IMG/VR virus record: IMGVR_UViG_3300045988_005753
DNA length: 64,000 nucleotides
Strand: one strand, 5' to 3'
DNA from: a virus
Lineage: Duplodnaviria > Heunggongvirae > Uroviricota > Caudoviricetes
Shown here: piece after piece, positions 2,959-41,067 of the stretch
How the letters are laid out: every line of letters begins with the position of its first letter
Position numbering within the stretch: position 1 is the first letter of the stretch
The notes under the pieces: generated by a model
Told to the model about the DNA's origin: nothing
Seen by the model: only the letters and a program-made list of their open reading frames with translations
The model's database searches: none
Program-made: the position numbers and the translations under genes

Positions 2959-3376
2959 AAGCTCTCCGAATAACCCTATTAAGCATCTCTAAAGTCAGCT
3001 TTCCAGATTCTAAATGTGGCACAATAAGTTTTAAAGCTTTTTCAACATCATGCACAACATCTATTATACCTTCTGCATAGGCTTCTACAAGGATATCTTT
3101 TACATTTTGTGATTTACCTTTTTGTGGTATCACTAGACGCATATCAAACTTATTTGCTTGAGGATGGTTCTTACCTTGCCAATAACCGTCTTTGTTAAAG
3201 CTGATGTAGTCACCGTGGTAAAAGTGTACACCATTAGCTTTAAACTTCTCCAGCACAAGGCATTGAATTGGGTATTCAGTATTCCACTCCCTGACTCCTA
3301 TAACCTTCACTGTTGCGATGTACTCCTGTGTTTTTGCATCTATGATGTCAAGTTCTTGACCAGCTATGATTTGCAT
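2948..3376 (-). CDS. hypothetical protein
   Basis: ATG start; operon-like packing with neighbours. Confidence 0.5.
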   Translation of the reverse strand: MQIIAGQELDIIDAKTQEYIATVKVIGVREWNTEYPIQCLVLEKFKANGVHFYHGDYISFNKDGYWQGKNHPQANKFDMRLVIPQKGKSQNVKDILVEAYAEGIIDVVHDVEKALKLIVPHLESGKLTLEMLNRVIRRAYEN

Positions 3377-3429
3377 ATTCGCTACCTTCTAAGTTTCTAC
3401 AAAGGGGCTATCAAGTAACCCCTAAGTTA

Positions 3430-3654
3430 TTACTCAGACTTTTCAGTCTTCTTATCGGATTTCTTACTAGTCTTCTTCTCAGCTTTCTGCTCAGGTTCCT
3501 TCTCAGGAGTTGCCTTGATAACCATATCAAGAAGCTCTGATAAGTCACTCTTCAGCAAAGTAACAGGCTGCTCGTTGTAGAAGTTTTTGTCAAGATAAAC
3601 TTTAAACTCTTCTATAGAAGGAAATCCAAAAATTGGTACAGGTGTCTTAATCAT
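3430..3654 (-). CDS. small lysine-rich hypothetical protein
   Basis: ATG start with GGAGAG RBS; KK-rich C-terminus. Confidence 0.5.
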   Translation of the reverse strand: MIKTPVPIFGFPSIEEFKVYLDKNFYNEQPVTLLKSDLSELLDMVIKATPEKEPEQKAEKKTSKKSDKKTEKSE

Positions 3655-3730
3655 TACTTAGTCTCTCCATAGGCATCTTTTAAGATTGCCTTGTTAATCA
3701 TTTCAGCGATTGCAAAACGAACACACACAG

Positions 3731-4234
3731 CTATAATTGTAGGTTGCATTCTTTACTTACCTCTTCAAGTTTAACCTCAGAATCCTTAAGTCGTTTCTTA
3801 TGAACCCTGAATCTCATTAGTGAGATGATAATACCAGCTAAAGGAACAGTATACAAGTACCAGATATCATGTAGCTTTGCAGTAATCTGTGTAATGGTCA
3901 AGTCTTGAGCTATGTAGCTGATTGCTGATACGGCTAGCAATGTTGCTAAGAAGAAAACCAGTATCATAACAATATTCAGACAACCTCTGGCGTGGTATTC
4001 ATGCTTAATGCACTTATTCTTCTCTTCAACAACCCTGTTGTAGTCATTTGTAAAGTCTCTGTAGAAAGCTTTCAAGTATTCTTGATTGTAGCCTTCAAAG
4101 CAACCTGTACCATACCAATAATCACCACCAAAATGTGCTATGATACCAGTATCTCCATTTGGTTTGGTTACTCTTAAAGAAGTATGATGACGAGTATCCT
4201 GGTAATCTATCTTATATCTCTCTTCAAAAATCAT
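3731..4234 (-). CDS. membrane protein (one hydrophobic segment)
   Basis: ATG at 4234 overlaps the upstream stop (ATGA) and has a GAGGGG RBS; hydrophobic stretch IVMILVFFLATLLAVSAISYI. Confidence 0.55.
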   Translation of the reverse strand: MIFEERYKIDYQDTRHHTSLRVTKPNGDTGIIAHFGGDYWYGTGCFEGYNQEYLKAFYRDFTNDYNRVVEEKNKCIKHEYHARGCLNIVMILVFFLATLLAVSAISYIAQDLTITQITAKLHDIWYLYTVPLAGIIISLMRFRVHKKRLKDSEVKLEEVSKECNLQL

Positions 4235-4449
4235 TTTCCAACCCCTCTCAATCGTTTGTTCCATTCAAGGTCAACAAATCTTTGCAGGACTTTCCCTCTA
4301 GGTGTTACACCTTTTAAATCTGCATCGTAACAATGGTAAAAGTCACCTTCAGCATGTTTACCATAGCATTTTCTGATATTCTGGCTTCTGCGATACTGTT
4401 CTAACAAGGACAGTTTGTAGTAATCTTCAACTGTAGTTAGTTTTTTCAT
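4231..4449 (-). CDS. hypothetical protein
   Basis: ATGA start-stop coupling with the upstream gene. Confidence 0.5.
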   Translation of the reverse strand: MKKLTTVEDYYKLSLLEQYRRSQNIRKCYGKHAEGDFYHCYDADLKGVTPRGKVLQRFVDLEWNKRLRGVGK

Positions 4450-4991
4450 TCTTTCACCATAGCATTTCTGAACTGACGTTGTGTTTCTCTTGTAATTTCG
4501 TTTGGAGTAAACCCTGCTTTTAGCATATCTCTGAAAAGAACTTCTAAATGGTTCCTCTCAATGATGTGAATGGCATTCTGAATAGCTGTTTTGCGCTCCT
4601 TCAGGTCACTACTAATCTCCTCGCACTTACTGGTAAGTTCTGTGTCAACTTTCTTATAGACTGGCATAACATGTGCGTAGCAACCTTTATTAGTCTCCAT
4701 GAAAAATTTAAAAGATTCTTCAGAGTCCTTTAGAGCAATCCCTATAAAGTTCTTGTAAGCACCTGTGAAAGATAAAGACTCAATCTCAGCAGTTGAGTAT
4801 ACAGTCCCTGCACACAGCCTTGCAGAAGTACTAAATGTGTGGTTTGGTGTCATGTCAAAATCTAAGTTCTTCAGTGGCCTGAAATAAACAATACCGTTGT
4901 GTGAGATATGTGTTACAACAGCCTCAACACTCTTTGACGGATTCTGTTTAACGTACAAAATTATTTTATCTTTTTCTTTCACTGTAGCCAT
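4446..4991 (-). CDS. hypothetical protein
   Basis: ORF of 181 aa packed in the operon. Confidence 0.55.
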   Translation of the reverse strand: MATVKEKDKIILYVKQNPSKSVEAVVTHISHNGIVYFRPLKNLDFDMTPNHTFSTSARLCAGTVYSTAEIESLSFTGAYKNFIGIALKDSEESFKFFMETNKGCYAHVMPVYKKVDTELTSKCEEISSDLKERKTAIQNAIHIIERNHLEVLFRDMLKAGFTPNEITRETQRQFRNAMVKE

Positions 4992-5063
4992 ATCTATTCT
5001 CCAGAAACTAAAAAGGGAACTACCTCTCGATAGCTCCCATCATAATTAATGTTGTATACTCAG

Positions 5064-5645
5064 TCAAGAGTATTTTTTAGGCAGTAATGCACTACGCTTG
5101 TTACTTTCCTCACTCAGTAGTGCGATAAATTCATCACCTTTGCCTTTCCACGGGCTAAATGTAGGGATGTGTTCTCTGATAGCCTCAATCACTGTTTTCA
5201 GGGCATTGTTCTTTAACCACCAATCAGACACTGCCGAAGCTACAATGTAGTAAGCACCATCATCCGTGAAGATTGGCTCAGAGATACATGGTGAAATCAT
5301 AGTGGTAATGATAGAACCATTATTCATGTAGTATGTTCTTTTTTCAACCTTGTCAAGAAGCTTATGAAGGTCTGCAAAGAGACTCACAACCTCTTTATGG
5401 TCAATATCTTTTTCAAGATTTGCTCTGTACTTTAATAGTGCAGCATCAACCTCTTTATCATTGAATTTGAAGTACTGGACTTCTTCATTCACACATACAC
5501 TGATATTGTTGGTGTTTATCGTCAATTTGCACAGTTTGACTGGAGAATTGATGTTAGTCTGAAAAAGTGCTACACAGCCTTCTACATTTCCGAAATGTTT
5601 TACTAATGTAACTTCTGGTTGGATATGCTCATGTTCTTCTGACAT
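5064..5645 (-). CDS. hypothetical protein
   Basis: ORF of 193 aa. Confidence 0.55.
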   Translation of the reverse strand: MSEEHEHIQPEVTLVKHFGNVEGCVALFQTNINSPVKLCKLTINTNNISVCVNEEVQYFKFNDKEVDAALLKYRANLEKDIDHKEVVSLFADLHKLLDKVEKRTYYMNNGSIITTMISPCISEPIFTDDGAYYIVASAVSDWWLKNNALKTVIEAIREHIPTFSPWKGKGDEFIALLSEESNKRSALLPKKYS

Positions 5646-5989
5646 TACAGTTTCCTCATTAAATACTTTTTAAGTTGTGTGTTAGGTTTCTCAAAAACTT
5701 CTATAGAAGATATCTTAACAGACTCACCACGCATACCAGTATGTTTGAATATATAGTACTCCAACATCCCTATGTACTTTGCTGGTAAGTCATACTTGAC
5801 ATACACCGTTACAGAATCTTCAAATTCAACAACCTTTGTGCCATCTTTGTAGTTAAACTCTTTAGGATGGTTGTAGTTGTCAATGTCATACATTAAAAAG
5901 AGTCTTTTACGTTGTAAGTCAAGCTTATTTGTTAAAGACTCTTTAATATCTGAGAAGTTTTTGTACACTGTGACATGGAGCTTGCTCAT
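5645..5989 (-). CDS. hypothetical protein
   Basis: ATG start with a GAGAG-type RBS. Confidence 0.5.
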   Translation of the reverse strand: MSKLHVTVYKNFSDIKESLTNKLDLQRKRLFLMYDIDNYNHPKEFNYKDGTKVVEFEDSVTVYVKYDLPAKYIGMLEYYIFKHTGMRGESVKISSIEVFEKPNTQLKKYLMRKL

Positions 5990-6275
5990 CGTTAAACTCT
6001 CTGACGAAGAAATAGTTGACTTTGTTATTACCTACCATAAGGTCAAAGCAGGTATTTTCAAAAGGTTTGTTGTAGGCATCGTATGAAATATATGGGTCAG
6101 CTACTTGCTTAGTGCTTAACTTCTTACTTGATGGATTTAAGAGGCCACCATACAGCTTCTTGATAGCCTCTTCTACAACAGACCAGATAATTTCGTCAGT
6201 AATTTCTTCGTACAGGTCAAGTTCACGCTCTAGTGAGAAGTCACAAATAGGGAAAACAACCTGTACTTTACTCAT
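5943..6275 (-). CDS. hypothetical protein
   Basis: ORF of 110 aa; its 3' end overlaps the next gene start by 47 nt. Confidence 0.45.
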   Translation of the reverse strand: MSKVQVVFPICDFSLERELDLYEEITDEIIWSVVEEAIKKLYGGLLNPSSKKLSTKQVADPYISYDAYNKPFENTCFDLMVGNNKVNYFFVREFNDEQAPCHSVQKLLRY

Positions 6276-12370: not shown

Positions 12371-12447
12371 CTCTGTTTAGCTCAGCTTGGTAGAGCGTTC
12401 CGTTTGGGGCGGTAAGGCCGGAGGTTCAAGTCCTCCAACAGAGACCA
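12371..12447 (+). tRNA. tRNA-Pro (UGG)
   Basis: cloverleaf folded by eye: acceptor CTCTGTT/AACAGAG, T-arm GGAGG-TTCAAGT-CCTCC, encoded CCA. Confidence 0.75.
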
Positions 12448-12454
12448 AATTAAT

Positions 12455-12532
12455 GTTCCAGTAGACAAAATGGTAAAGTCACCACTCTTTCAAAGTGGAT
12501 ATTTGAGGGTTCAAATCCCTTCTGGAACGCCA
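12455..12532 (+). tRNA. tRNA-Glu (UUC)
   Basis: acceptor GTTCCAG/CTGGAAC, anticodon stem CCACT/AGTGG, loop CTTTCAA, CCA. Confidence 0.75.
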
Positions 12533-12537
12533 GTTTT

Positions 12538-12618
12538 GACAGAAGACCAATTACAGCAAACTTAATCTTATTCATCTGAAGGTAAATCGGACAAAGAAGA
12601 GATTTGGTCTGGTCATTA
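12538..12618 (+). ncRNA. stem-bounded structured element A (ACAGAAGACCAATTACAGCAA ... TTGGTCTGG)
   Basis: 5' AGACCAA pairs with 3' TTGGTCT; compensatory changes relative to elements B and C. Confidence 0.4.
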
Positions 12619-12623
12619 AGAAT

Positions 12624-12700
12624 TGCGGGTATAGAGAAAGGGCGTCTCACATGTCTCATTAGCATGGTATCGGCAGGTTCGACTCCTGCACCCGCCTCCA
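12624..12700 (+). tRNA. tRNA-Met-like (CAU), irregular acceptor with a 1:72 mismatch
   Basis: T-arm GCAGG-TTCGACT-CCTGC, anticodon stem CATGT/GCATG, loop CTCATTA, CCA; 5' boundary uncertain. Confidence 0.5.
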
Positions 12701-12705
12701 AATTT

Positions 12706-12776
12706 ACAGAAGACCGTTTACAGCAACATTTATTAAATTTTTAGCGGAAAAATTGAAAGATACGGTCTGGTAATAC
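12706..12776 (+). ncRNA. stem-bounded structured element B (ACAGAAGACCGTTTACAGCAA ... ACGGTCTGG)
   Basis: 5' AGACCGT pairs with 3' ACGGTCT; internal AATTTTT-AGCGG-AAAAATT hairpin. Confidence 0.4.
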
Positions 12777-12783
12777 TAAACAT

Positions 12784-12860
12784 GGTTAGGAAGCACATAA
12801 GGTATGTGCGGTCGCCTGTTAAGCGAATGGCACAGGGTTCGAATCCCTGACTAACCGCCA
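12784..12860 (+). tRNA. tRNA-Asn (GUU)
   Basis: acceptor GGTTAGG/ACTAACC, D-stem GCAC/GTGC, loop CTGTTAA, T-arm CAGGG-TTCGAAT-CCCTG, CCA. Confidence 0.75.
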
Positions 12861-12929
12861 AATTTAGGAGAGAAGCGATTGCTCACCGATTTGTAAGGTG
12901 CAAGTCCTTAGCCTGAATAGAAATTAAAT

Positions 12930-13017
12930 GTGTCGTTATCCCGTAGATGGTAGCGGTGGGGACTGTAAATCCCTTGTCATTGAGACTCGGTAGGTTCGAC
13001 TCCTACACGGCACACCA
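12930..13017 (+). tRNA. tRNA-Tyr (GUA), long variable arm
   Basis: 88 nt; acceptor GTGTCGT/ACGGCAC, loop CTGTAAA, T-arm GTAGG-TTCGACT-CCTAC, CCA. Confidence 0.7.
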
Positions 13018-13022
13018 ATAAA

Positions 13023-13100
13023 GGTTATGTAGTTTAATCTGGTTAAAATACTCCCCTGTCACGGGAGATGATGAGGGTTCAAATCCCTTCGTAACCGCCA
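13023..13100 (+). tRNA. tRNA-Asp (GUC)
   Basis: acceptor GGTTATG/CGTAACC, anticodon stem CTCCC/GGGAG, loop CTGTCAC, CCA. Confidence 0.75.
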
Positions 13101-13124
13101 ATTTTGAGAGGGCTATTTAGCCCC

Positions 13125-13160
13125 TCCCTTAAAGAGTTCTTACGAGTATTCTTTAAAGGA
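13125..13160 (+). other. conserved hairpin (stem CCTTAAAGA/TCTTTAAAGG, loop containing TTCTTACGAG)
   Basis: same hairpin family recurs at 13974-14005 and 16466-16495, each time in a spacer of the tRNA array. Confidence 0.45.
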
Positions 13161-13161
13161 G

Positions 13162-13240
13162 CAGAAGGCCAAATACAGCAAGAATGTATGAAATTTCAAG
13201 CCAATTTAATTTTGAAAATTTAAAACTTGGTCTGGCTCAA
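13162..13240 (+). ncRNA. stem-bounded structured element D (AGAAGGCCAAATACAGCAAG ... TTGGTCTGG)
   Basis: 5' GGCCAA pairs with 3' TTGGTC (one G-U); same ACAGCAA core as A, B and C. Confidence 0.35.
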
Positions 13241-13247
13241 CAAATTT

Positions 13248-13385
13248 ACAGAAGACCGTTTACAGCAAAACTTAAACAATCTATTTCTCCGGTAAAGAAA
13301 AGGCGAAGGTTCGATTCCTTCACTCGGCAGATGTCGAGTTGGTGTAATGGTAGCACTTAAGATGATAAACAACGGTCTGGTAATT
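13248..13385 (+). ncRNA. candidate Y-RNA / YrlA-like tRNA mimic: closing stem around a circularly permuted tRNA-like module
   Basis: order read directly: 5' stem AGACCGTT, T-arm GAAGG-TTCGATT-CCTTC, acceptor 3' strand ACTCGGC, 4-nt loop, acceptor 5' strand GTCGAGT, D-arm GTGT-AATGGTA-GCAC, 3' stem AACGGTCT. Confidence 0.5.
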
Positions 13386-13529
13386 ATCTTTGTAGATAAG
13401 TTATTAAGCTTACCTGTGAGTATGCGACCACAAAGGGTGAATGGGTAAATTCTAGATTTAAACCCAAAAAGGCACATCGCTACAGACCTTAAGCAAGTCT
13501 GGGTAGCTTATCTACAAAGATAATTTAAT

Positions 13530-13605
13530 GGAAGTGTAGCAGAATGGTGATGCGGCAGACTTTTAATCTGACAGGCGATGGGTTCGAATCCCTCCACTTC
13601 TACCA
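13530..13605 (+). tRNA. tRNA-Lys (UUU)
   Basis: acceptor GGAAGTG/CACTTCT, loop CTTTTAA, T-loop TTCGAAT, CCA. Confidence 0.7.
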
Positions 13606-13609
13606 ATAT

Positions 13610-13686
13610 GGTTCAGTCGCAGATAAGGTAATGCAAGGGTCTCATAAGCCCTATGAATGTGGGTTCGATTCCCATCTGAACCTCCA
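13610..13686 (+). tRNA. tRNA-Met or tRNA-Ile2 (CAU)
   Basis: acceptor GGTTCAG/CTGAACC, anticodon stem AGGGT/GCCCT, loop CTCATAA, CCA. Confidence 0.7.
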
Positions 13687-13687
13687 A

Positions 13688-13763
13688 GCTGGTATAGTTA
13701 AGAAGGTTATAACACTCCCCTGATAAGGGAACATCGGTGGTTCGATTCCACCTACCAGTACCA
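13688..13763 (+). tRNA. tRNA-Ile (GAU)
   Basis: acceptor GCTGGTA/TACCAGT, D-stem GTTA/TAAC, loop CTGATAA, T-arm GGTGG-TTCGATT-CCACC, CCA. Confidence 0.7.
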
Positions 13764-13778
13764 ATTTCAATAAAGTTG

Positions 13779-13807
13779 TTGACATTGAGATGTGACTACT
13801 TTATAGT
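13779..13807 (+). promoter_or_regulatory. internal sigma70-type promoter within the tRNA array
   Basis: TTGACA, 17-bp spacer, TATAGT. Confidence 0.5.
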
Positions 13808-13973
13808 AACCTTAGTTTTCGTTGCGTAGCGTCTATTTTGCAAATTTAAAATAAATGCAAACGACAATGTTTTTCTGGCAGTAGCTTGATAGGCTAAACA
13901 CCAGTGAGGTCTTCCAATCCCTCATCAAAGAATTTGGCGTACTCGCCCACGGTATGATTAATAAGGTGGGCAT

Positions 13974-14005
13974 CTTTAAGGACTTTCTAAGAGAGTCTTT
14001 AAAGA
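13974..14005 (+). other. conserved hairpin (stem CTTTAAGGA/TCTTTAAAG, loop CTTTCTAAGAGAG)
   Basis: member of the TTCT(T)A(C/A)GAGAG-loop hairpin family. Confidence 0.45.
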
Positions 14006-14009
14006 TAAT

Positions 14010-14086
14010 GCACCCTTAGTTCAATTGGATAGAGCAACGGTCTTCTAAATCGTTAGTTACAGGTTCGAATCCTGTAGGGTGTACCA
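14010..14086 (+). tRNA. tRNA-Arg (UCU)
   Basis: acceptor GCACCCT/AGGGTGT, anticodon stem ACGGT/ATCGT, loop CTTCTAA, T-arm ACAGG-TTCGAAT-CCTGT, CCA. Confidence 0.75.
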
Positions 14087-14228
14087 AATAGTTAGCAGAT
14101 TACTTAGACTGCCTTAGCGGGTCTTCCTGTAGGGAGGTGGTCTGTATCTCATGTTTTCCAGAACATGTAAATAATCTGAGAAGAAGCTTGACAGTGTTGA
14201 GATAACAGGGTAAGCTTCGAATTATAAT

Positions 14229-14311
14229 ATGGGACGATGTTAAGACTCTAAGGCATGAGCAACGGCCTCCAAAACCGTTTCAAAGGGGTTCAACTCCTCC
14301 GTCCCATGCCA
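14229..14311 (+). tRNA. tRNA-like gene, probably tRNA-Trp (CCA), with an enlarged irregular D-region
   Basis: perfect 7-bp acceptor ATGGGAC/GTCCCAT, T-loop TTCAACT, CCA end, anticodon loop CTCCAAA; 83 nt. Confidence 0.5.
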
Positions 14312-14324
14312 AAGTCTTATTAGG

Positions 14325-14414
14325 GGTAGGTAGCGGCTAATGGCAGCCAAACAGTCTTGAAAACTGTTGCCACTGTAGAGATACGGTGAGGGTTCGACTC
14401 CTTTACTTACCGCC
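14325..14414 (+). tRNA. tRNA-Ser (UGA), long variable arm; CCA apparently not encoded
   Basis: acceptor GGTAGGT/ACTTACC, anticodon stem ACAGT/ACTGT, loop CTTGAAA, T-loop TTCGACT. Confidence 0.65.
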
Positions 14415-14565
14415 TAATAAGATTTACTCCGTCCATGCTTGTTCGCATTGTCGGTTTATCCCTCGTGTATTGTCGTACACTGTCAAAGCACCTAGTAGGT
14501 GTCATGGAGAGAGATAATATCAAGCTCTCCAAAGGTTCTAGTCACCGGATTAAACAAGACTATGC

Positions 14566-14588
14566 AAAGACCTAAATAGGTCTTTTTA
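14566..14588 (+). terminator. rho-independent terminator-like hairpin inside the tRNA array
   Basis: AAGACC-TAAATA-GGTCTT followed by TTTTT. Confidence 0.45.
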
Positions 14589-14591
14589 GAG

Positions 14592-14650
14592 GGCTTCTAA
14601 GGTTATTACAGCTTGTTGTGGAACCTTGTTGCTTAGGTTCTTAGAAGTTC
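14592..14650 (+). other. long hairpin (CTTCTAAGG ... CTTAGAAG)
   Basis: 8-bp inverted repeat around a 40-nt loop; related to the CTAAGG hairpin family. Confidence 0.35.
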
Positions 14651-14666
14651 TCTAAAAAGATTTAAT

Positions 14667-14744
14667 GGGAGATTGACGGTAATTGGTAAACCTACCATCC
14701 TTAGAAGTTGGTGTTTGAGGGTTCGAATCCCTTGTCTCCTACCA
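14667..14744 (+). tRNA. tRNA with anticodon UAG (Leu-type) but a short variable arm
   Basis: acceptor GGGAGAT/GTCTCCT, D-loop AATTGGTAA (Leu-like), anticodon stem CCATC/GTTGG, loop CTTAGAA, A73, CCA; 78 nt. Confidence 0.6.
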
Positions 14745-14751
14745 AATTAAT

Positions 14752-14827
14752 GCAGGTGTAGCAAAATGGTTATGCGGCTGACTCTTAATCAGTAAGACGA
14801 TGGGTTCAATTCCCTCCACCTGTACCA
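14752..14827 (+). tRNA. tRNA-Lys (CUU)
   Basis: acceptor GCAGGTG/CACCTGT, anticodon stem GCTGA/TCAGT, loop CTCTTAA, CCA; close paralog of the Lys(UUU) gene. Confidence 0.7.
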
Positions 14828-14833
14828 AACAAT

Positions 14834-14909
14834 GGGGTCATAGTTTATATGGTTAAAATTCGAGTTTTGCAAACTTGGGAACTGAGTTCAATTCTCAGTG
14901 ACTCCACCA
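14834..14909 (+). tRNA. tRNA-Ala (UGC)
   Basis: acceptor GGGGTCA/TGACTCC, anticodon stem CGAGT/ACTTG, loop TTTGCAA, T-arm CTGAG-TTCAATT-CTCAG, CCA. Confidence 0.75.
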
Positions 14910-14915
14910 ATTAGT

Positions 14916-14990
14916 GCATCCATAGTTTAAACGGGAAAATTACAGTCTTCCAAACTGAGGTTGAGGGTTCGATTCCCTCTGGATGCTCCA
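14916..14990 (+). tRNA. tRNA-Gly (UCC)
   Basis: acceptor GCATCCA/TGGATGC, loop CTTCCAA, T-arm GAGGG-TTCGATT-CCCTC, CCA. Confidence 0.7.
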
Positions 14991-14997
14991 AATTAAT

Positions 14998-15073
14998 GCT
15001 CCTATCGTATAATTGGTTATTACGGTTGCCTTGTAAGCAACTTATCAGGGTTCGAGTCCTTGTGGGAGCACCA
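14998..15073 (+). tRNA. tRNA-Thr (UGU)
   Basis: acceptor GCTCCTA/TGGGAGC, anticodon stem GTTGC/GCAAC, loop CTTGTAA, CCA. Confidence 0.75.
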
Positions 15074-15074
15074 A

Positions 15075-15165
15075 TTCAGAGGTCAAGTGAAAGACCGCTT
15101 TGAGTCAACTGAAGACCGTAACAAATTCCACGGAGTTGAGTTAGCGGCACAACTCCAGACCTCTT
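15075..15165 (+). ncRNA. structured spacer element E (long-range stem CAGAGGTC/GACCTCT, internal hairpin GGAGTTG...CAACTCC, GAAGACCGTAACAA motif)
   Basis: inverted repeats read directly; shares the GAAGACCGT core with elements A-D. Confidence 0.35.
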
Positions 15166-15169
15166 TCAT

Positions 15170-15244
15170 ACTCGCTTAGTTTATATGGTAAAACATCACC
15201 CTTACAAGATGAAGAAAAAGGTTCAAGTCCTTTAGTGAGTACCA
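15170..15244 (+). tRNA. tRNA-Val (UAC)
   Basis: acceptor ACTCGCT/AGTGAGT, D-stem GTTT/AAAC, anticodon stem TCACC/GATGA, loop CTTACAA, CCA. Confidence 0.7.
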
Positions 15245-15245
15245 T

Positions 15246-15323
15246 GTTCCAGTATCCCAATTGGCAGAGGATGCAAGCTCAAACCTTGTATTAGTGACGG
15301 TTCGAATCCGTCTTGGAACACCA
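15246..15323 (+). tRNA. tRNA with anticodon CAA (Leu-type) but a short variable arm
   Basis: acceptor GTTCCAG/TTGGAAC, D-loop AATTGGCAGAG (Leu-like), anticodon stem GCAAG/CTTGT, loop CTCAAAC, A73, CCA. Confidence 0.6.
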
Positions 15324-15328
15324 ATTTT

Positions 15329-15404
15329 GCAGGATTAGTTCAAATGGAAAGAGCAACAGTCTACGAAGCTGTTAATAGGGGTTCGAATCCCTTATCCTGC
15401 GCCA
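15329..15404 (+). tRNA. tRNA-Arg (ACG)
   Basis: acceptor GCAGGAT/ATCCTGC, D-stem GTTC/GAGC, anticodon stem ACAGT/GCTGT, loop CTACGAA, CCA. Confidence 0.75.
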
Positions 15405-15421
15405 GATAAAAAGGTGACACT

Positions 15422-15664
15422 ATGCAAACATTAACAGTAGTTGAACATGAAAACTGTGAGAGTATTGAGTTTGTCAGGGTCATTGGTGTTGAACACCACA
15501 TTTTCTTAAAAGTGGGATACTTATGTGACCCCGCTAGAGTAGAAAGATTTATACGTGATTGTTTTGGTGGTAGACATCTGAAGAGTGTTATTTTTGAGAC
15601 AGTTTTACCAGAAGGTTTAGAAACGAATAATAACATTTACCTCCTTACGAGGATTAGACAATGA
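15422..15664 (+). CDS. hypothetical protein embedded in the tRNA array
   Basis: ATG with AGGTGA RBS; ATGA coupling to the next ORF. Confidence 0.45.
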   Translation: MQTLTVVEHENCESIEFVRVIGVEHHIFLKVGYLCDPARVERFIRDCFGGRHLKSVIFETVLPEGLETNNNIYLLTRIRQ

Positions 15665-16218
15665 GATACTTAAAGTATGCTTCATGGATTTTCTTAGCTT
15701 TGTTAGAGCCATTTGCAGCAATCTTAGCAGTTATCTTAGCACCTTTCGTAGTTCCATTCTACAGTGAGAAGAAAGGACATCTACCTTTCGGGTTCAGATG
15801 GATGGAAACTTATGACAACCCAATTGATGGTGATGAAGGTCACGTTAAAAGATGGGCTAATATTAGATGGATTGGTAAACTAGGTGTCTACATGCAAAGA
15901 GTCGGATGGCTCTGGAGAAACAAAGCTTATAACTTCTCTTACCATGTATTAGGGAGAGATGTAAAAGATGTTACTAAGTGGAAAGGTAATATCAACGTAA
16001 GTTCTGACCCTGAAGATAATCAGACAGGTTATCTCCTAATGTGGAACAGTAATGCTTGGGGATTATTCGCTTTTATCCCATCAATTAAAATCTTTGGTAA
16101 ACAATTTTACTGGAGAATTTATATTGGATGGAAACTAAAAAGTGTTGTCCCAGAAGAAAGAGCATTCTCAAGGGAAAGAGTTATGTTGGCATTCTTTATT
16201 CATCCACTGAGAAAGTAA
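15661..16218 (+). CDS. membrane protein embedded in the tRNA array
   Basis: N-terminal hydrophobic segment WIFLALLEPFAAILAVILAPFVVPF; 185 aa. Confidence 0.5.
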   Translation: MRYLKYASWIFLALLEPFAAILAVILAPFVVPFYSEKKGHLPFGFRWMETYDNPIDGDEGHVKRWANIRWIGKLGVYMQRVGWLWRNKAYNFSYHVLGRDVKDVTKWKGNINVSSDPEDNQTGYLLMWNSNAWGLFAFIPSIKIFGKQFYWRIYIGWKLKSVVPEERAFSRERVMLAFFIHPLRK

Positions 16219-16226
16219 AGATTTAA

Positions 16227-16302
16227 AGGGGATTAGTTTACAAGGTTAAAACCTCGGTCTTTGAAATCGAAGAAGTTGGTTCAATTCCAACATCCCCCGC
16301 CA
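16227..16302 (+). tRNA. tRNA-Gln (UUG)
   Basis: acceptor AGGGGAT/ATCCCCC, anticodon stem TCGGT/ATCGA, loop CTTTGAA, T-arm GTTGG-TTCAATT-CCAAC, CCA. Confidence 0.7.
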
Positions 16303-16304
16303 AT

Positions 16305-16383
16305 GCTCCATTACTCCAATTGGCAGAGAGGCCAGACTTAAAATCTGTGTTATGTATCGGTTCGAATCCGATATGGAGTACCA
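16305..16383 (+). tRNA. tRNA with anticodon UAA (Leu-type) but a short variable arm
   Basis: acceptor GCTCCAT/ATGGAGT, D-loop AATTGGCAGAG (Leu-like), loop CTTAAAA, T-arm ATCGG-TTCGAAT-CCGAT, A73, CCA. Confidence 0.6.
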
Positions 16384-16388
16384 AATTT

Positions 16389-16464
16389 AGCGGTATAGCA
16401 TAACTGGCAATGCAGCAGTCTCTGAAGCTGTCTTATTAAGGTTCAAATCCTTATGCCGCTGCCA
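16389..16464 (+). tRNA. tRNA-Gln (CUG)
   Basis: acceptor AGCGGTA/TGCCGCT, anticodon stem GCAGT/GCTGT, loop CTCTGAA, CCA. Confidence 0.65.
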
Positions 16465-16465
16465 C

Positions 16466-16495
16466 TTCTAAGGATTCTTACGAGAGTCCTTAAAT
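16466..16495 (+). other. conserved hairpin (stem TAAGGA/TCCTTA, loop TTCTTACGAGAG)
   Basis: member of the TTCTTACGAG-loop hairpin family. Confidence 0.45.
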
Positions 16496-16571
16496 GTGGC
16501 CTTATCATAAATGGTAATGACCCATGCTGTGAACATGGTCTATACGGGTTCAAATCCCGTAGGTCACCCCA
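16496..16571 (+). tRNA. tRNA-His (GUG)
   Basis: acceptor GTGGCCT/AGGTCAC, D-stem TCAT/ATGA, anticodon stem CCATG/CATGG, loop CTGTGAA, CCA. Confidence 0.75.
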
Positions 16572-16576
16572 ATTTA

Positions 16577-16653
16577 TAGTCCAAGTAGCTTATATGGTTA
16601 AAGCGCGTGTCTGAAAAACATGAGAAGAGGGTTCAAATCCCACTGGACTACCA
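16577..16653 (+). tRNA. tRNA-Phe (GAA)
   Basis: acceptor TAGTCCA/TGGACTA, anticodon stem CGTGT/ACATG, loop CTGAAAA, T-loop TTCAAAT, CCA; 5' end uncertain by 1 nt. Confidence 0.65.
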
Positions 16654-16669
16654 ATTTCAAAGGTGCTTA

Positions 16670-17404
16670 ATGAAAGAGATGACAGAACAAGGTAAGGAGA
16701 TTTTTAATCTCTTAAAAACTGGTAAAGGGTTTTCTAACCCCCTTATTACTGGTGCAGCAGTTCTCGGTGGAACCGTAGCTGCCTCCACATCACTTGTAAG
16801 CTCTATTAGTTCTGTATCAGACCCTACAGTAAAAGATAAGCTTGTTGCTGCTGGACTTACAACAGTTCTGCTTAACAGCTTTACCACGAGTCTGACAAGC
16901 ACTACATCAACTACCAAAACACTGACAGATTACGGTCAAAAGTCCATTGATGAGTTTTCATCACGTATGCAGGTAGCAAAAGGTTATTCTAATGTTATGG
17001 GTGCAGCAGGTGAACAAGTTGGCTGTACACCATTTAGTGGTATTATGGGTGTTGCTACAGAGTATGGTCAAAAAGCTATTGATACGATTAACAGTGCACT
17101 AGACGGTGTTAATGATGTATTAAGTGATTTACAAGACGCTATTGACAAAGGTCTTGATACTATTTCTGATTTAGCTAACCAAGCTGTTAGTAAGATTAAT
17201 GAAGGTATCTCGAAGATTACAGCTTATGCAGATGAAGTTGTGCAGATGATTGAAGAAGAAGCTGCCCTTATTGCAGAGTACCTTAAAACGAATATCAATG
17301 GGTTCTTAGCAGGTATCTTACCAGACTGGTTTGATGATGCTTGTAAAACTGGTGTAATTGACACTATTGCAACACCAGAAATGAAGAACGCATTACAGAA
17401 ATAA
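16670..17404 (+). CDS. hypothetical Ser/Thr-rich protein
   Basis: track ORF starts inside tRNA-Phe; first ATG downstream of the tRNA (16670) has an AAAGGTG RBS. Confidence 0.5.
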   Translation: MKEMTEQGKEIFNLLKTGKGFSNPLITGAAVLGGTVAASTSLVSSISSVSDPTVKDKLVAAGLTTVLLNSFTTSLTSTTSTTKTLTDYGQKSIDEFSSRMQVAKGYSNVMGAAGEQVGCTPFSGIMGVATEYGQKAIDTINSALDGVNDVLSDLQDAIDKGLDTISDLANQAVSKINEGISKITAYADEVVQMIEEEAALIAEYLKTNINGFLAGILPDWFDDACKTGVIDTIATPEMKNALQK

Positions 17405-17405
17405 T

Positions 17406-17498
17406 GGAAGATTAACCCTAAAAGGTAAGGGAGCAGTTTGCTAAACTGCCAGTAGCTGAGAAATCGGTGTACCAGTTCAAGTCTGGTATCTTCCTCCA
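17406..17498 (+). tRNA. tRNA-Ser (GCU), long variable arm
   Basis: 93 nt; acceptor GGAAGAT/ATCTTCC, anticodon stem GCAGT/ACTGC, loop TTGCTAA, T-arm ACCAG-TTCAAGT-CTGGT, CCA. Confidence 0.7.
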
Positions 17499-17502
17499 AT
17501 TT

Positions 17503-17578
17503 GAATCCGTGACAGAAATGGCTATGTGCCTGTCTGCAAAACAGGTTTATAAGGGTTCGAGTCCCTTCGGATTCTCCA
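17503..17578 (+). tRNA. tRNA-Cys (GCA)
   Basis: acceptor GAATCCG/CGGATTC, anticodon stem CCTGT/ACAGG, loop CTGCAAA, T-arm AAGGG-TTCGAGT-CCCTT, CCA. Confidence 0.75.
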
Positions 17579-37295: not shown

Positions 37296-38471
37296 ATGGC
37301 AGTAGGTGAAATTCAAATTAGTGCCTTGCCACAAGCGGCCTTACCAATTGATTTGAGTGATATCTTCCATCTTAAGCAAGGTGTTGAGGATAAAAGATGT
37401 ACGCTTGAACAGTTGTTAGCACCTCACGCATCTTTGAGGAATAACCCTCATGGTGTAACGAAATCGCAAGTAGGTCTTGATAATGTTATTAACTCTCTTC
37501 AATTAGTTGCAGCTAATAACTTGTCAGACATTGTAAATGTTGCTGAGGCAAGAGCAAATCTACAAATTATGTCGTCAGAGGAAGTGAATAACTTAATTCA
37601 GCAACATATTGACGACAAAAGTAACCCACATAACACAACGAAAGCACAGGTCGGTTTAAGTAATGTTCAGAACTGGACAACATCTAATCTGTACAATGAA
37701 GATGCTGATAAGTACGCTACCGCGAAAGCAGTTAATAATTTATACAAAGCTATCCAAGCATCATATCCAGTGGGGACTATTCATCTGTCTGTTAACTCTG
37801 CTAACCCATCCACTTACTTGCTTTGTGGAGGTACTTGGGAGTTAGTTTCTAAAGGTAGAGCACTAGTTGGTTATGATACAGATTCCAGACCTGTTGGTTC
37901 AACGTTTGGTTCTCAGACTGTAGCATTAACAAATAATAATTTACCAGCACATACTCACTCTATCTATCTAACAGGTGGTGGTCATACACACTCTGCAAGT
38001 GTATCTATCTCTAGTTTTGATTATGGTTCAAAAAGTACATCAACTTTTGATTACGGTACAAAAACGACTAATAGTGCTGGTGCTCACACTCACACGTTTA
38101 GTGGCACAACAAGTAATGCTGGTAACCACAACCATAGAGTTCCTATGAGGGGTAATGATAGGGGTGGCACAAACGCTATTACTGCATCTGCTGATGCTGG
38201 TGTTGGTAATGCTATGTATACTGATTTAGCTGGTGCTCACACCCATAGCTTCTCAGGTACAACTGCATCATCTGGTGCTCATAGCCATACTGTCGCAATT
38301 GGTGCTCACAGCCACACTGTTAATATTGGTTCGCACAGTCATACAGGCACTGTTACTGTTTCTAGCTCTGAGCATACACACTCAGGGACATCTGGTTCTG
38401 TTGGTGGTGGTCAAGCTTTCAGTGTTGAGCAGCCATCTTTTGTAGTGTATGTGTGGCAGAGAACAGCTTAA
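37296..38471 (+). CDS. tail fibre protein with His-x-His C-terminal tip
   Basis: two copies of the NPH..TK.QVGL.NV phage fibre repeat; C-terminal repeats AHTHS, GHTHS, AHSHTV, SHSHTG. Confidence 0.75.
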   Translation: MAVGEIQISALPQAALPIDLSDIFHLKQGVEDKRCTLEQLLAPHASLRNNPHGVTKSQVGLDNVINSLQLVAANNLSDIVNVAEARANLQIMSSEEVNNLIQQHIDDKSNPHNTTKAQVGLSNVQNWTTSNLYNEDADKYATAKAVNNLYKAIQASYPVGTIHLSVNSANPSTYLLCGGTWELVSKGRALVGYDTDSRPVGSTFGSQTVALTNNNLPAHTHSIYLTGGGHTHSASVSISSFDYGSKSTSTFDYGTKTTNSAGAHTHTFSGTTSNAGNHNHRVPMRGNDRGGTNAITASADAGVGNAMYTDLAGAHTHSFSGTTASSGAHSHTVAIGAHSHTVNIGSHSHTGTVTVSSSEHTHSGTSGSVGGGQAFSVEQPSFVVYVWQRTA

Positions 38472-38517: not shown

Positions 38518-41067
38518 ATGGCAGATTACAAATTGAGTCAATTAAACTCAATCGACACAATTCGTTCAGAAGACCTATTGCACATCAGAGTTAAGAAAAG
38601 ACCTGAAATGTTGGGTGATGAAGACCGCAGAATGACCTATCAAGACTTCTTAGCTTCCTTCAAACTAGAAAGGTTTGTTCAGATTGCTGGAAGTAATATG
38701 ACTGGGGATTTAGGTATTGTCAAGTTACTTTATGGTGGTAAGGCAGTATTTGACCCTACAGGTTCTTCTGAAATTACTATTGGGGATGTTTTAAAGACTT
38801 TTAAACTTAATGCAAATGGTCTTAAACTAACTATTGCAGATGCTTCAAGGTCAGCAACTGTTTATCATACTCTGAATAAGCCAAGTCCTAATGAGCTTGG
38901 TATGAGAACTAATGAAGAGAATGACGCAAGATATGCAAGACTTGCTATCACAAACACATTCTCTGGAACTCAAAATATTCAAGGTGATGCTAACTTACTT
39001 CGCCTTAGAAACCAAAATGCAAATAATGCACAATACATCGAAGGTGTAAACCTAGATGGTTCGGCTAGATGGTGGGTTGGTATTGGTAGTAATGGCTCTG
39101 ATGAAGTAAAGCTGTACAATAACAAATACAACTCAGCCTTGACTGTTGCAAGTAATGTCTCTGTTAATAAGTCTTTAGCAATCACTGGTCAAGTTCAACC
39201 TTCAGATTTCTCTAACTTAGATGCTAGATACTTCACTCAGACAGTTGCTAATCAGAGATTTGCACAGTTAGCTGCTAATAATAATTTCACGGGCACTAAC
39301 ACGTTTAGTAGAAATCTAACCATCATTAGTGACAGTGCTGCTTTAAGGTTGAAAAATGCAACAGCTAGCTCACTATTCATTCATGGTGTTGACTCTCAGA
39401 ACACTAACAGGTGGTATGTAGGGAACGGGGATAACACAGCCTCTGTGCTGCTACACAACTATGTACACGGTTCAAATATCAGGCTTGATAATGGCTATAT
39501 CTCAGTCAACCAGAACTTCAGAATCACTGGTCAAGTTCAACCTTCGGATTGGACTAATATTGACTCTAGATATATTCCGGCAGCAACATTAAGTACGATT
39601 GCAAGAACTAATGCACAAAATACTTTTAATGGTGTACAGAAAGTTGTTACGGATAATGAAGCCCTAATTGTGAAAAACTCTACTCAGAACAGACCATTGT
39701 ATATCCGTGGTGTGGACACTGCTAATGTGTCAAGGTGGTGGGTAGGTGTTGGTAGGGCAGATAATAATGATGTAACCCTAAATAACAGTTATTCTGGAAC
39801 CCAATTGGTTCTCGGGAATACAACATCATACATTAACAAAACATTGACTATTGCTGGACAAGTTCAACCTTCAGATTTCTCTAACTTAGATGCTAGATAC
39901 TTTACGCAAAGTGCTAGTGATAGTAGATACCTAAGAATCAGAAGCACTAGCTTCAATGTGGGAAACACTGATAAGTGGGCTAAAATTGCCACTGTTGTGA
40001 TGCCACAATCAGCATCCACTGCTGTTATTGAGGTATTTGGTGGGTCAGGTTTTAATATTAATACACCAAACCAAGCAGGTAAATGTGAAATTGTTCTGCG
40101 AACTTCAAATAACAATCCAAAGGGCTTAAATGTTGTTGCTTGGAGAACATCAGAGAACACCATTATCAGGGATATTGGTTATGTGAATACTTCTGGAGAC
40201 ACCTATGATATTTACTATCTTGCTGGTACGCATCAAAACAGCACAACGACAAGGGTTCAGTCTTCTAGTAATGCAAGTGTACAGTTGTTTGAAGTCCCAC
40301 AGACATTTGATGATGCTCCACAAGGTATTGTGAAGGGTACAATTGCAAAATACTACACAAGTTTGCAAAAACCAACCCCTTCAGATATTGGTGCATACAC
40401 TAAAGCAGAGACTGACCAGAAAATTGCAGAAGCAATTAGTGACTCTACAGACCTGAATAAAATCTATCCAGTAGGTATTGTAACGTGGTTTAACAGTAAT
40501 GTTAACCCTAATACAGCACTTCCTGGTCTAACTTGGACGTACCTGAACAATGGTGTTGGTAGAACTATTAGAATTGCAGCAGCAAACGGTTCAGATGTTG
40601 CTACAACTGGTGGTTCAGACTCTGTAACGTTATCTGTTGGTAACTTACCTTCACATACACACAGTTTCTCTGCTACCACTTCATCATTTGATTATGGTAC
40701 TAAGACTTCTAGCACAACTGGTAACCATAACCACAACAGAGGTACTATGGAGATTACTGGTTCATTTGGTTACTTCAGGAGTGACACTAGCAGCTTCTAC
40801 ACAGCAAGTGGTGCATTCCACCTCGGTAGTCAGGCAGGTTCTAAAGGGTTTACTGGTAATAACTTTACTAATGGTATCCCTGTCAACTTCAACGCATCAA
40901 GAAACTGGTCTGGTGTAACAAATACAACAGGTAACCATAGCCACACTGTAGGTATTGGTGCTCACAGTCACACTGTTAGTGGTAACACAGGTGGTACTGG
41001 TTCTGGTTCAGCATTTAGTGTTACTAACCAGTTCTATAAGCTAATGGCTTGGGTAAGAACTGCTTAA
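38518..41067 (+). CDS. long tail fibre protein with three internal tandem repeats and a His-x-His C-terminal tip
   Basis: repeated ITGQVQPSDFSNLDARYFTQ and WWVG.G blocks; C-terminus SHTHSFS..NHNHN..NHSHTVGIGAHSHTV; ends ..WVRTA like the shorter fibre. Confidence 0.75.
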   Translation: MADYKLSQLNSIDTIRSEDLLHIRVKKRPEMLGDEDRRMTYQDFLASFKLERFVQIAGSNMTGDLGIVKLLYGGKAVFDPTGSSEITIGDVLKTFKLNANGLKLTIADASRSATVYHTLNKPSPNELGMRTNEENDARYARLAITNTFSGTQNIQGDANLLRLRNQNANNAQYIEGVNLDGSARWWVGIGSNGSDEVKLYNNKYNSALTVASNVSVNKSLAITGQVQPSDFSNLDARYFTQTVANQRFAQLAANNNFTGTNTFSRNLTIISDSAALRLKNATASSLFIHGVDSQNTNRWYVGNGDNTASVLLHNYVHGSNIRLDNGYISVNQNFRITGQVQPSDWTNIDSRYIPAATLSTIARTNAQNTFNGVQKVVTDNEALIVKNSTQNRPLYIRGVDTANVSRWWVGVGRADNNDVTLNNSYSGTQLVLGNTTSYINKTLTIAGQVQPSDFSNLDARYFTQSASDSRYLRIRSTSFNVGNTDKWAKIATVVMPQSASTAVIEVFGGSGFNINTPNQAGKCEIVLRTSNNNPKGLNVVAWRTSENTIIRDIGYVNTSGDTYDIYYLAGTHQNSTTTRVQSSSNASVQLFEVPQTFDDAPQGIVKGTIAKYYTSLQKPTPSDIGAYTKAETDQKIAEAISDSTDLNKIYPVGIVTWFNSNVNPNTALPGLTWTYLNNGVGRTIRIAAANGSDVATTGGSDSVTLSVGNLPSHTHSFSATTSSFDYGTKTSSTTGNHNHNRGTMEITGSFGYFRSDTSSFYTASGAFHLGSQAGSKGFTGNNFTNGIPVNFNASRNWSGVTNTTGNHSHTVGIGAHSHTVSGNTGGTGSGSAFSVTNQFYKLMAWVRTA

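Follow-up and report, generated by a model that had tools for sequence, protein, structure and literature searches.

What do short, exact direct repeats do inside a phage tail fibre gene? The question is raised by a stretch of 64,000 nucleotides (nt) from a tailed phage (IMG/VR virus record IMGVR_UViG_3300045988_005753; hereafter the window), in which the long tail fibre (LTF) gene, an open reading frame (ORF) of 849 amino acids (aa) at 38518–41067 on the plus strand, houses two identical copies of a 44-nt sequence. An earlier note on this DNA had proposed that such repeats are substrates for the expansion and contraction of fibre length. Our analysis points to a different principal role. The repeats are conserved linkers between the domains of the fibre shaft, and they probably act as homology islands at which whole domain cassettes are exchanged in register between phages, with out-of-register events changing fibre length only rarely. 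This swapping of divergent cassettes at the linkers, which the earlier note did not propose, is the dominant signature in the comparisons described below.

By sequence and by gene order, the gene is a Felixounavirus LTF of the Bas63 gp27/wV8 gp83 type. It matches genes annotated as tail fibres in Felix O1-like phages (genus Felixounavirus), and its best megablast match, wV8 gene 83 ("tail fiber protein"), is ~96% identical at the nucleotide level over the aligned 92%. Three domains of the Pfam family PF20744 and a tip resembling that of T4 gp37 (PDB 2xgf) agree with this assignment.

The repeats are linkers between shaft domains

The exact copies lie at 39190–39233 and 39859–39902, on the plus strand, and are the only two in the window. 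The near-identical 45-nt repeat described in the earlier note is therefore real, exact, and within the fibre gene in both copies, although it measures 44 nt and its second copy, placed at about 39860, starts at 39859. The diverged third copy reported near 39530 was likewise found, at 39532–39575, where 33 of its 44 bases agree with the 44-mer. No match to the 44-mer arose in 100 dinucleotide-preserving shuffles, with up to three mismatches tolerated. The similarity extends beyond the exact core: a repeat finder aligned 76 nt at 84% identity (39164–39239 versus 39833–39908), and copies 1 and 2 share 74 of 100 bases around the core. The repeat family consists of three 76-nt stretches beginning at 39164, 39506, and 39833 (spacings of 342 and 327 nt), and identity to the first stretch is 67% for the second and 84% for the third.

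All three copies are in frame within the ORF. The 44-mer encodes GQVQPSDFSNLDARYF, the linker that follows a beta domain, and across the three copies the linker peptide reads GQVQPSD(F/W)xN(L/I)DxRY, each time after one PF20744 domain (gp37_trimer, "gp37 trimerization region"). The LTF contains three of these domains (E = 2.4e-81; 268.3 bits against a gathering cut-off of 21.7), and its homologues bear the same precomputed domain. The supposed match between the DNA copies and three protein-level repeats thus holds in that three units exist; the DNA repeats, however, are the linkers after the units, not the units themselves.

We refer to the three tandem PF20744 beta domains as cassettes A, B, and C, to a fourth variable module as D, and to the linkers as L0–L4; all lie on the plus strand. 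The gene opens with a conserved N-terminal region (38518–38871; aa 1–118), which is 92–100% identical in amino acids in nearly all of 143 homologues and which, from the segment boundaries and the published architecture (PMC12609058), probably comprises the baseplate-binding domain and first beta repeat of a Bas63-type LTF. Next comes L0 (38872–38943; KPSPNELGMRTNEENDARYARL), which stands ahead of cassette A, belongs to the linker family in diverged form, and is 88–100% conserved in homologues; nucleotide identity to relatives falls just downstream of it, around 38938. Cassette A (38944–39177; aa 143–220; cassette type 0), whose hidden Markov model (HMM) domain spans aa 140–223, leads into linker island L1 (39178–39291; aa 221–258; ...ITGQVQPSDFSNLDARYFTQTVANQRFAQLA...), which holds the first exact copy. 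Cassette B (39292–39519; aa 259–334; type 3; HMM domain aa 249–337) leads into linker island L2 (39520–39597; aa 335–360; ITGQVQPSDWTNIDSRYIPAATLST), which holds the diverged copy and carries a position-specific signature, NIDSRYIP, present in nearly all genomes examined. Both L1 and L2 are conserved islands at the nucleotide level. Cassette C (39598–39846; aa 361–443; type 1; HMM domain aa 362–446) is followed by L3 (39847–39906; aa 444–463; TIAGQVQPSDFSNLDARYFT), which holds the second exact copy and marks the boundary with variable module D (39907–40365; aa 464–616). Between L3 and L4, module D is replaced in one piece; by the segment boundaries and PMC12609058, it probably represents the fifth beta repeat of a Bas63-type LTF. 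Beyond the conserved linker L4 (40366–40437; LQKPTPSDIGAYTKAETDQKIAEA; KPTPSDIGAYTKAETDQKIAEA; 75–100% conserved) lie a C-terminal collar and the HxH needle and head of the receptor-binding tip (40438–41064), with HxH motifs in the translation. L4 is related to L0, the BLASTP similarity between KPSPNELGMRTNEENDARYARL and KPTPSDIGAYTKAETDQKIAEA giving E = 9e-4 and 1e-3 in two reciprocal alignments; L0 and L4 flank the entire variable shaft from A to D, and so form a second, more diverged direct-repeat pair.

The bodies of units A, B, and C are 34–39% identical to one another in amino acids and 47–50% in nucleotides. On these figures the domain bodies are old paralogues, with only the linkers conserved at the DNA level.

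By sequence and fold similarity, the predicted unit is T7 gp17 pyramid-like. In phmmer, a unit matched the structure solved for the C-terminal domain of T7 gp17, of which the pyramid domain is a part (E = 1.9e-6; with a unit profile, E = 2.7e-8), and Foldseek related the AlphaFold2 (AF2) unit model to T7 gp17 (4A0T/4A0U) with a probability of 1.0 and a root-mean-square deviation of 1.4 Å over 63–67 residues, at 35% identity. The AF2 monomer model of residues 119–480 (mean predicted local distance difference test score, pLDDT, 70.6; predicted template modelling score 0.32) contains three beta-rich domains (pLDDT about 85–93), and between them lower-confidence linkers with short helices. By homology, the linker probably corresponds to the "triple alpha-helix and turn" motif of a bead-on-a-string shaft, and the AF2/HMM picture agrees with the published cryo-electron microscopy description of the orthologous Bas63 fibre. 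T4 gp34 was not among the sequence hits of a profile search of the PDB, and the Foldseek similarity of the AF2 monomer to that protein was weak (E = 0.06). At the C-terminus, phmmer matched the T4 gp37 tip (2xgf; E = 7e-7) with the HxH motifs aligned; Pfam matches of the tip to Gp10_C (E = 1.5e-4) and gp37_C (E = 7e-3) fall below gathering scores and give weak support.

Homologous fibres are mosaics with switches at the linkers

Homologues were gathered as 120 proteins and 27 IMG/VR loci, followed by several further loci, with the window protein as reference. Identities per segment, from a MAFFT alignment, cover 143 homologues (two artefactual rows, P0070 and P0038, were looked at separately); statistics on high and low identity cover the 136 in-register homologues, and unit counts cover 144 proteins.

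Across the 143 homologues, the linkers and the N-terminus are mostly 81–100% identical to the window, and among the 136 in-register homologues the N-terminus, L0, L1, L2, and L4 are at least 80% identical in 99–100%. The cassettes are bimodal in their identity. Cassette A is at least 80% identical to that of the window in 69% of homologues and at most 62% identical in 31%; the corresponding proportions are 21% and 76% for cassette B, and 42% and 52% for cassette C. Module D ranges from 7% to 100% identity. High and low states occur in all combinations, giving 24 patterns, and neighbouring segments are often discordant (N-terminus and A in 41 of the 136, A and B in 84, B and C in 66, C and D in 36), so that breakpoints are needed between adjacent cassettes. 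When 430 units from the 144 proteins were clustered at 75% identity, they fell into 32 cassette types and 54 three-cassette architectures.

The breakpoints can be placed on the DNA. Nucleotide identity between the window and its relatives flips between 96–100% and ~50% at 39178–39268, 39508–39620, and 39838–39900. Even in wV8, the nearest relative in GenBank, a different B allele (42% identical in amino acids, about 50–60% in nucleotides) sits between flanks that are 96–100% identical. Divergence in place cannot produce such switches at the linker islands, which therefore reflect replacement by recombination. A codon alignment of 22 genomes gives the same contrast, with nucleotide identities of 0.78–0.91 in the linker islands versus about 0.45–0.65 in the cassette bodies. 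In that alignment the synonymous codon identity of the linkers is no different from that of the N-terminus; the linkers thus behave as ordinary backbone, with no sign of special selection at the DNA level.

The third linker bounds a further exchangeable segment. Homologues of 788–790 aa are 81–98% identical to the window through cassette C (89–98% where overall identity is ~94%), drop to 10–12% immediately after L3, and recover at L4; L3 therefore doubles as the 5′ limit of a distal module that can be swapped. Three shorter GenBank matches, in KhF1, KhF3, and MET-P1-301, were considered as candidates for the loss of a unit and set aside, as their match spans are consistent with the 788–790-aa form, which has a shorter D module.

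As judged by sequence comparison, then, this is a mosaic gene of a recognizable kind: motifs conserved in DNA flank hypervariable segments, and those segments assort independently among natural isolates.

Cassettes have moved between positions, rarely changing their number

Most cassette types are specific to one position, and five occur at more than one. In Salmonella phage DaR-2019a (MK965969; L030), the A type of the window occupies position 2, in the order X–L2type–[A, 88% nt]–L1–[B, 93% nt]–L3, a register shift of one unit. The A type is found at position 3 in DaR-2019b (L034) and in an Escherichia coli-associated contig (L031), at positions 1 and 3 in Salmonella phage vB_Si_CECAV_FGS030 (PP429241; L033), and, at 80% nucleotide identity, as the fourth of five units in a divergent Ounavirinae contig (L029). 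The junctions of the moved cassettes lie at linkers. The duplication in FGS030 is a 300-nt direct repeat of 92% identity (1738–2037 and 2401–2700 of L033, spaced 663 nt) that terminates, on its 3′ side, exactly where the 44-mer element does; as a substrate for unequal recombination it far exceeds the 44-mer of the window in size.

Exactly three units are present in 143 of the 144 close homologues. The remaining one, a two-unit protein of 740 aa (P0038) encoded on a single ENA metagenome contig (L028; ERZ1505402 NODE_674; 6.7x coverage), has lost cassette C precisely, with a junction inside GQVQPSD that is consistent with a crossover between L2 and L3. Searching 1.84 billion representative proteins with a profile added a five-unit gene (1015 aa; P0121) and a four-unit gene (901 aa as called; P0122), whose fibre loci are syntenic and lie on Ounavirinae-like uncultured contigs of 77–87 kb. 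The five-unit gene is on L029 (Logan SRR22802239_169, gene at 3001–6048), where the flanking baseplate genes have only about 72% nucleotide identity to any GenBank phage; the four-unit gene is on L032 (ENA ERZ28599557 scaffold_93, gene at 3001–5706), and its call apparently begins about 30 codons late, at MLGDEDR.

It could be argued from these variants that the main role of the repeats is that of a length-unstable array, in which unequal recombination among L1, L2, and L3 regularly yields shorter or longer fibres in phage populations. The two-unit variant with its junction in a linker, the four- and five-unit orthologues in more distant Ounavirinae, and the register shifts and internal 300-nt duplication in isolates all speak for it, as does a precedent in T4, where duplicating a small fibre domain changed the host range (Tetart 1996, as cited in PMC3157838). 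We nonetheless judge such a role improbable. Beyond the constancy of three units in close homologues, a genus-wide AlphaFold survey in the Bas63 study found no variation in repeat number (PMC12609058). A junction-specific pattern, validated on the positive controls L028 and L030 (both matched), gave no L1–L3 or L2–L3 junction in IMG/VR, JGI metagenomes, or GTDB genomes, and a synthetic query for the L1–L3 deletion (−669 bp) gave no one-unit gene among 50,697 GenBank phage records. One contiguous full-length match to the deletion query, in FGS030, proved to come from an ordinary three-unit gene whose third position holds an A-type cassette. Further, the units of an unstable tandem array are near-identical in DNA throughout and their number is frequently polymorphic among close relatives. 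Here, unlike in such arrays, the bodies are about 48% identical, only the linker of 44–76 nt is shared (~44 nt of homology), and four or five units occur in divergent lineages only. Consensus assemblies cannot show rare population variants, and length events may still take place at low frequency.

The proposal that the repeats are substrates for length change therefore captures a minor outcome. The earlier note had named an absence of length polymorphism in populations or relatives as the observation that would count against it, and relatives with two, four, and five units do exist, as do register shifts; the rule is nevertheless three units. Purifying selection, perhaps on fibre length, presumably holds the count there. 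Alongside this idea of a length constraint may be set the observation that the retracted Bas63 fibre docks along the tail sheath (PMC12609058).

Why the first and third linkers agree

Conservation of the linker peptide is strong in every genome and at each position, and one might suppose that this is sufficient: an intolerant trimeric helix-and-turn motif, combined with codon preference, could make the DNA alike with neither a recombinational history nor a recombinational consequence. The synonymous codon identity of the linkers in the 22 genomes (0.65–0.87), which is not above that of the conserved N-terminus, is compatible with this. With the codon usage of this phage, however, independent encodings of the 16-residue GQVQPSDFSNLDARYF would share ~6.8 of 16 codons, whereas L1 and L3 share 15 of 16; the probability of at least 15 matching is 1.6e-5, and of all 16, 6e-7. 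Codon bias therefore does not account for the identity of L1 and L3. Nor does constraint on the peptide sit well with mosaic breakpoints that cluster at the linkers, with cassettes that assort independently, or with cassettes that have moved between positions with junctions at a linker. In genomes with the same peptide at both positions, moreover, paralogous linkers lie no further apart than orthologous ones: L1 and L3 differ by 3.1 nucleotides per 45, against 3.1 for L1 compared with L1 and 2.5 for L3 compared with L3, although the adjacent domains diverged anciently. Taken together, these results make structural constraint by itself a very improbable explanation.

Because the paralogous distance is not above the orthologous one despite that ancient divergence, the linkers behave as a homogenised pool. 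Such a pool fits occasional non-allelic exchange, or cassettes that bring their own 3′ linker with them, and one or other of these is the likeliest reason for the 44-nt identity of L1 and L3 in this genome. An alternative is recent, lineage-specific gene conversion within the gene, in which a short tract homogenised L1 and L3 in one genome independently of any exchange between phages. The exact 44-mer is doubled only in the window and in one further locus (L001), other genomes showing 1–4 mismatches and wV8 2–3 differences between L1 and L3; another locus (L020) carries its own variant, WANLDARY, at both linkers in a 46-nt exact match; and the distance between L1 and L3 is slightly smaller within genomes than between them (7.61 versus 8.17 differences; permutation P about 0.05, ignoring phylogenetic relatedness). 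This gap is small, however, L1 and L3 are clearly different in several genomes (for example, L017 and L018), and the same identity is also expected from a cassette imported along with its 3′ linker. Gene conversion is also compatible with cassette exchange and does not exclude it. We regard it as a less likely possibility, and given so marginal a permutation test we do not claim ongoing gene conversion as demonstrated.

A proposed model of cassette exchange

Cassette exchange between phages at the linkers, which we consider the probable explanation, would proceed as follows. The linkers, as slowly evolving backbone whose DNA is conserved across phages as well as across positions, would provide short stretches of homology. 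When phages co-infect a cell, homologous recombination, presumably with a recombination machinery involved, would cross over within the linker DNA. A crossover in register would replace one cassette with a very different allele, so that repeated exchange could generate combinatorial diversity of the shaft and, at L3 and L4, diversity of the distal module. Less often, linkers at different positions (L1 and L3, say, or L2 and L3) would pair out of register, and the crossover would move, duplicate, delete, or add a cassette.

Several points weigh against this explanation. No crossover was seen directly, and the breakpoints are resolved to conserved islands of ~60–110 nt and not to the 44-mer. Homology of 20–45 nt is short for efficient homologous recombination. 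The position-specificity of most cassette types means that non-allelic exchange is uncommon, and within-genome covariation of L1 and L3 is marginal. The sole two-unit variant comes from a metagenome assembly of low coverage and could be an artefact. Finally, the Bas63 study, which finds a constant repeat number, proposes reasons other than recombination for the variability of the fibre, namely tolerance of mutations, recognition of the host, or evasion of defence systems (PMC12609058).

A more ambitious reading is that the shaft domains, instead of serving as passive spacers, form a combinatorial system of specificity or evasion, and that linker DNA is partly retained as a universal splice site for any cassette at any position. 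It would cover the at least 32 cassette types at three positions, together with module D and the tip. We find this extended reading rather doubtful.

Relation to known fibre systems

The nearest precedent is the T-even g37/g38 system, in which short conserved motifs likewise flank hypervariable segments and natural isolates are chimeric (PMC3157838). Exchanges there fall within or near the conserved motifs, such as His boxes and glycine-rich motifs (Trojet et al. 2011, PMC3157838), and the model of recombination at these motifs goes back to Tetart et al. (1996, 1998), as cited in PMC3157838. Duplication of a small fibre domain is known there as well. The Felixounavirus case differs in that whole shaft domains of ~85 residues (PF20744) are swapped, not loops of a tip adhesin, and in that the conserved element is an inter-domain helix-turn linker present in 3–5 copies per gene, which makes out-of-register exchange possible. 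It also differs in being known from the comparison of genomes.

The Bas63 (JohannRWettstein) fibre gp27 is the closest structural counterpart. Its study reports unexpected variability in repeats 2–5 at a constant repeat number (PMC12609058); these repeats correspond to A, B, C, and D here, a correspondence set by the published description and not by alignment of the Bas63 gp27 sequence. The present analysis differs from that study in finding bimodal, independently assorting alleles, positional shifts, and rare genes with two, four, or five units, and the words "recombination" and "cassette" do not occur in that paper. The T4 gp34 rod (PDB 5NXF/5NXH) and the T4 gp37 trimerization region are similarly built of tandem mixed alpha/beta fibrous domains, although the similarity of the monomer model to gp34 is weak, and the T4 repeats are not reported here as exchangeable cassettes. 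Among solved structures, the T7 gp17 pyramid (4A0T/4A0U) is the best match to a single unit, but it is present in one copy directly before the tip domain, whereas three stand in tandem within the shaft here.

The PF20744 family, the T7 gp17 pyramid/T4 gp34-like rod fold, the architecture of the Bas63 fibre, and motif-mediated fibre mosaicism are therefore already known. That cassette exchange underlies the "unexpected" variability of shaft repeats 2–5 has apparently not been stated for Felixounavirus: in the open-access literature we found no paper describing cassette recombination in these fibres, and other Felixounavirus genome papers note the fibre merely as variable.

The fibre locus and other features of the window

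The locus has the canonical layout for a Felixounavirus fibre region: baseplate genes, a 391-aa short fibre, and the long fibre, after which come two ORFs of only 64 and 123 aa and, on the strand opposite to the long fibre, a thymidylate synthase. The same gene order was found in every related locus fetched, including L028–L034. The short fibre bears a Gp10_C/HxH tip, and its gene (37296–38471) shares DNA-level direct repeats with the C-terminus of the LTF (40680–41001) in the HxH needle regions: 54 nt at 81% identity (38269–38322 versus 40925–40978) and 46 nt at 78% (38078–38123 versus 40956–41001). These are directly oriented and ~2.6 kb apart, and could permit exchange of tips, or deletion, between the two fibre genes.

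The window further contains 26 tRNA genes, clustered at 12371–17578 on the plus strand; the 22 reported for Felix O1 are slightly fewer (PMC3185647). Felixounavirus fibre sequence of about 89% identity also appears under other host names, in Staphylococcus phage SA1 (GU169904.1, 84735–84951) and in "Campylobacter" records, which suggests that these entries are mislabelled, chimeric, or contaminated.

Implications for Felix O1-like phages

The mechanism proposed here is not of a new kind; motif-mediated mosaicism of T-even fibres has been known since the 1990s, and a specialist would not be surprised to meet it. Felix O1-like phages are, however, widely used for typing, biocontrol, and therapy of Salmonella and E. 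coli, and their host recognition is poorly understood. Cassette exchange, rather than gradual drift, offers a simple explanation for the puzzle of shaft variability raised by the structural study. The linkers L0–L4 mark natural, structurally tolerated junctions that may be used in the engineering of chimeric fibres. Fibre length can change, to two, four, or five beads, and is normally three, which hints at a functional constraint on length. If the more ambitious reading above, which we doubt, were correct, Felix O1-like phages would own a recombination-based generator of fibre-shaft diversity, serving, for example, lateral glycan binding or escape from defences that sense the fibre, and occasionally altering the number of beads in the shaft.

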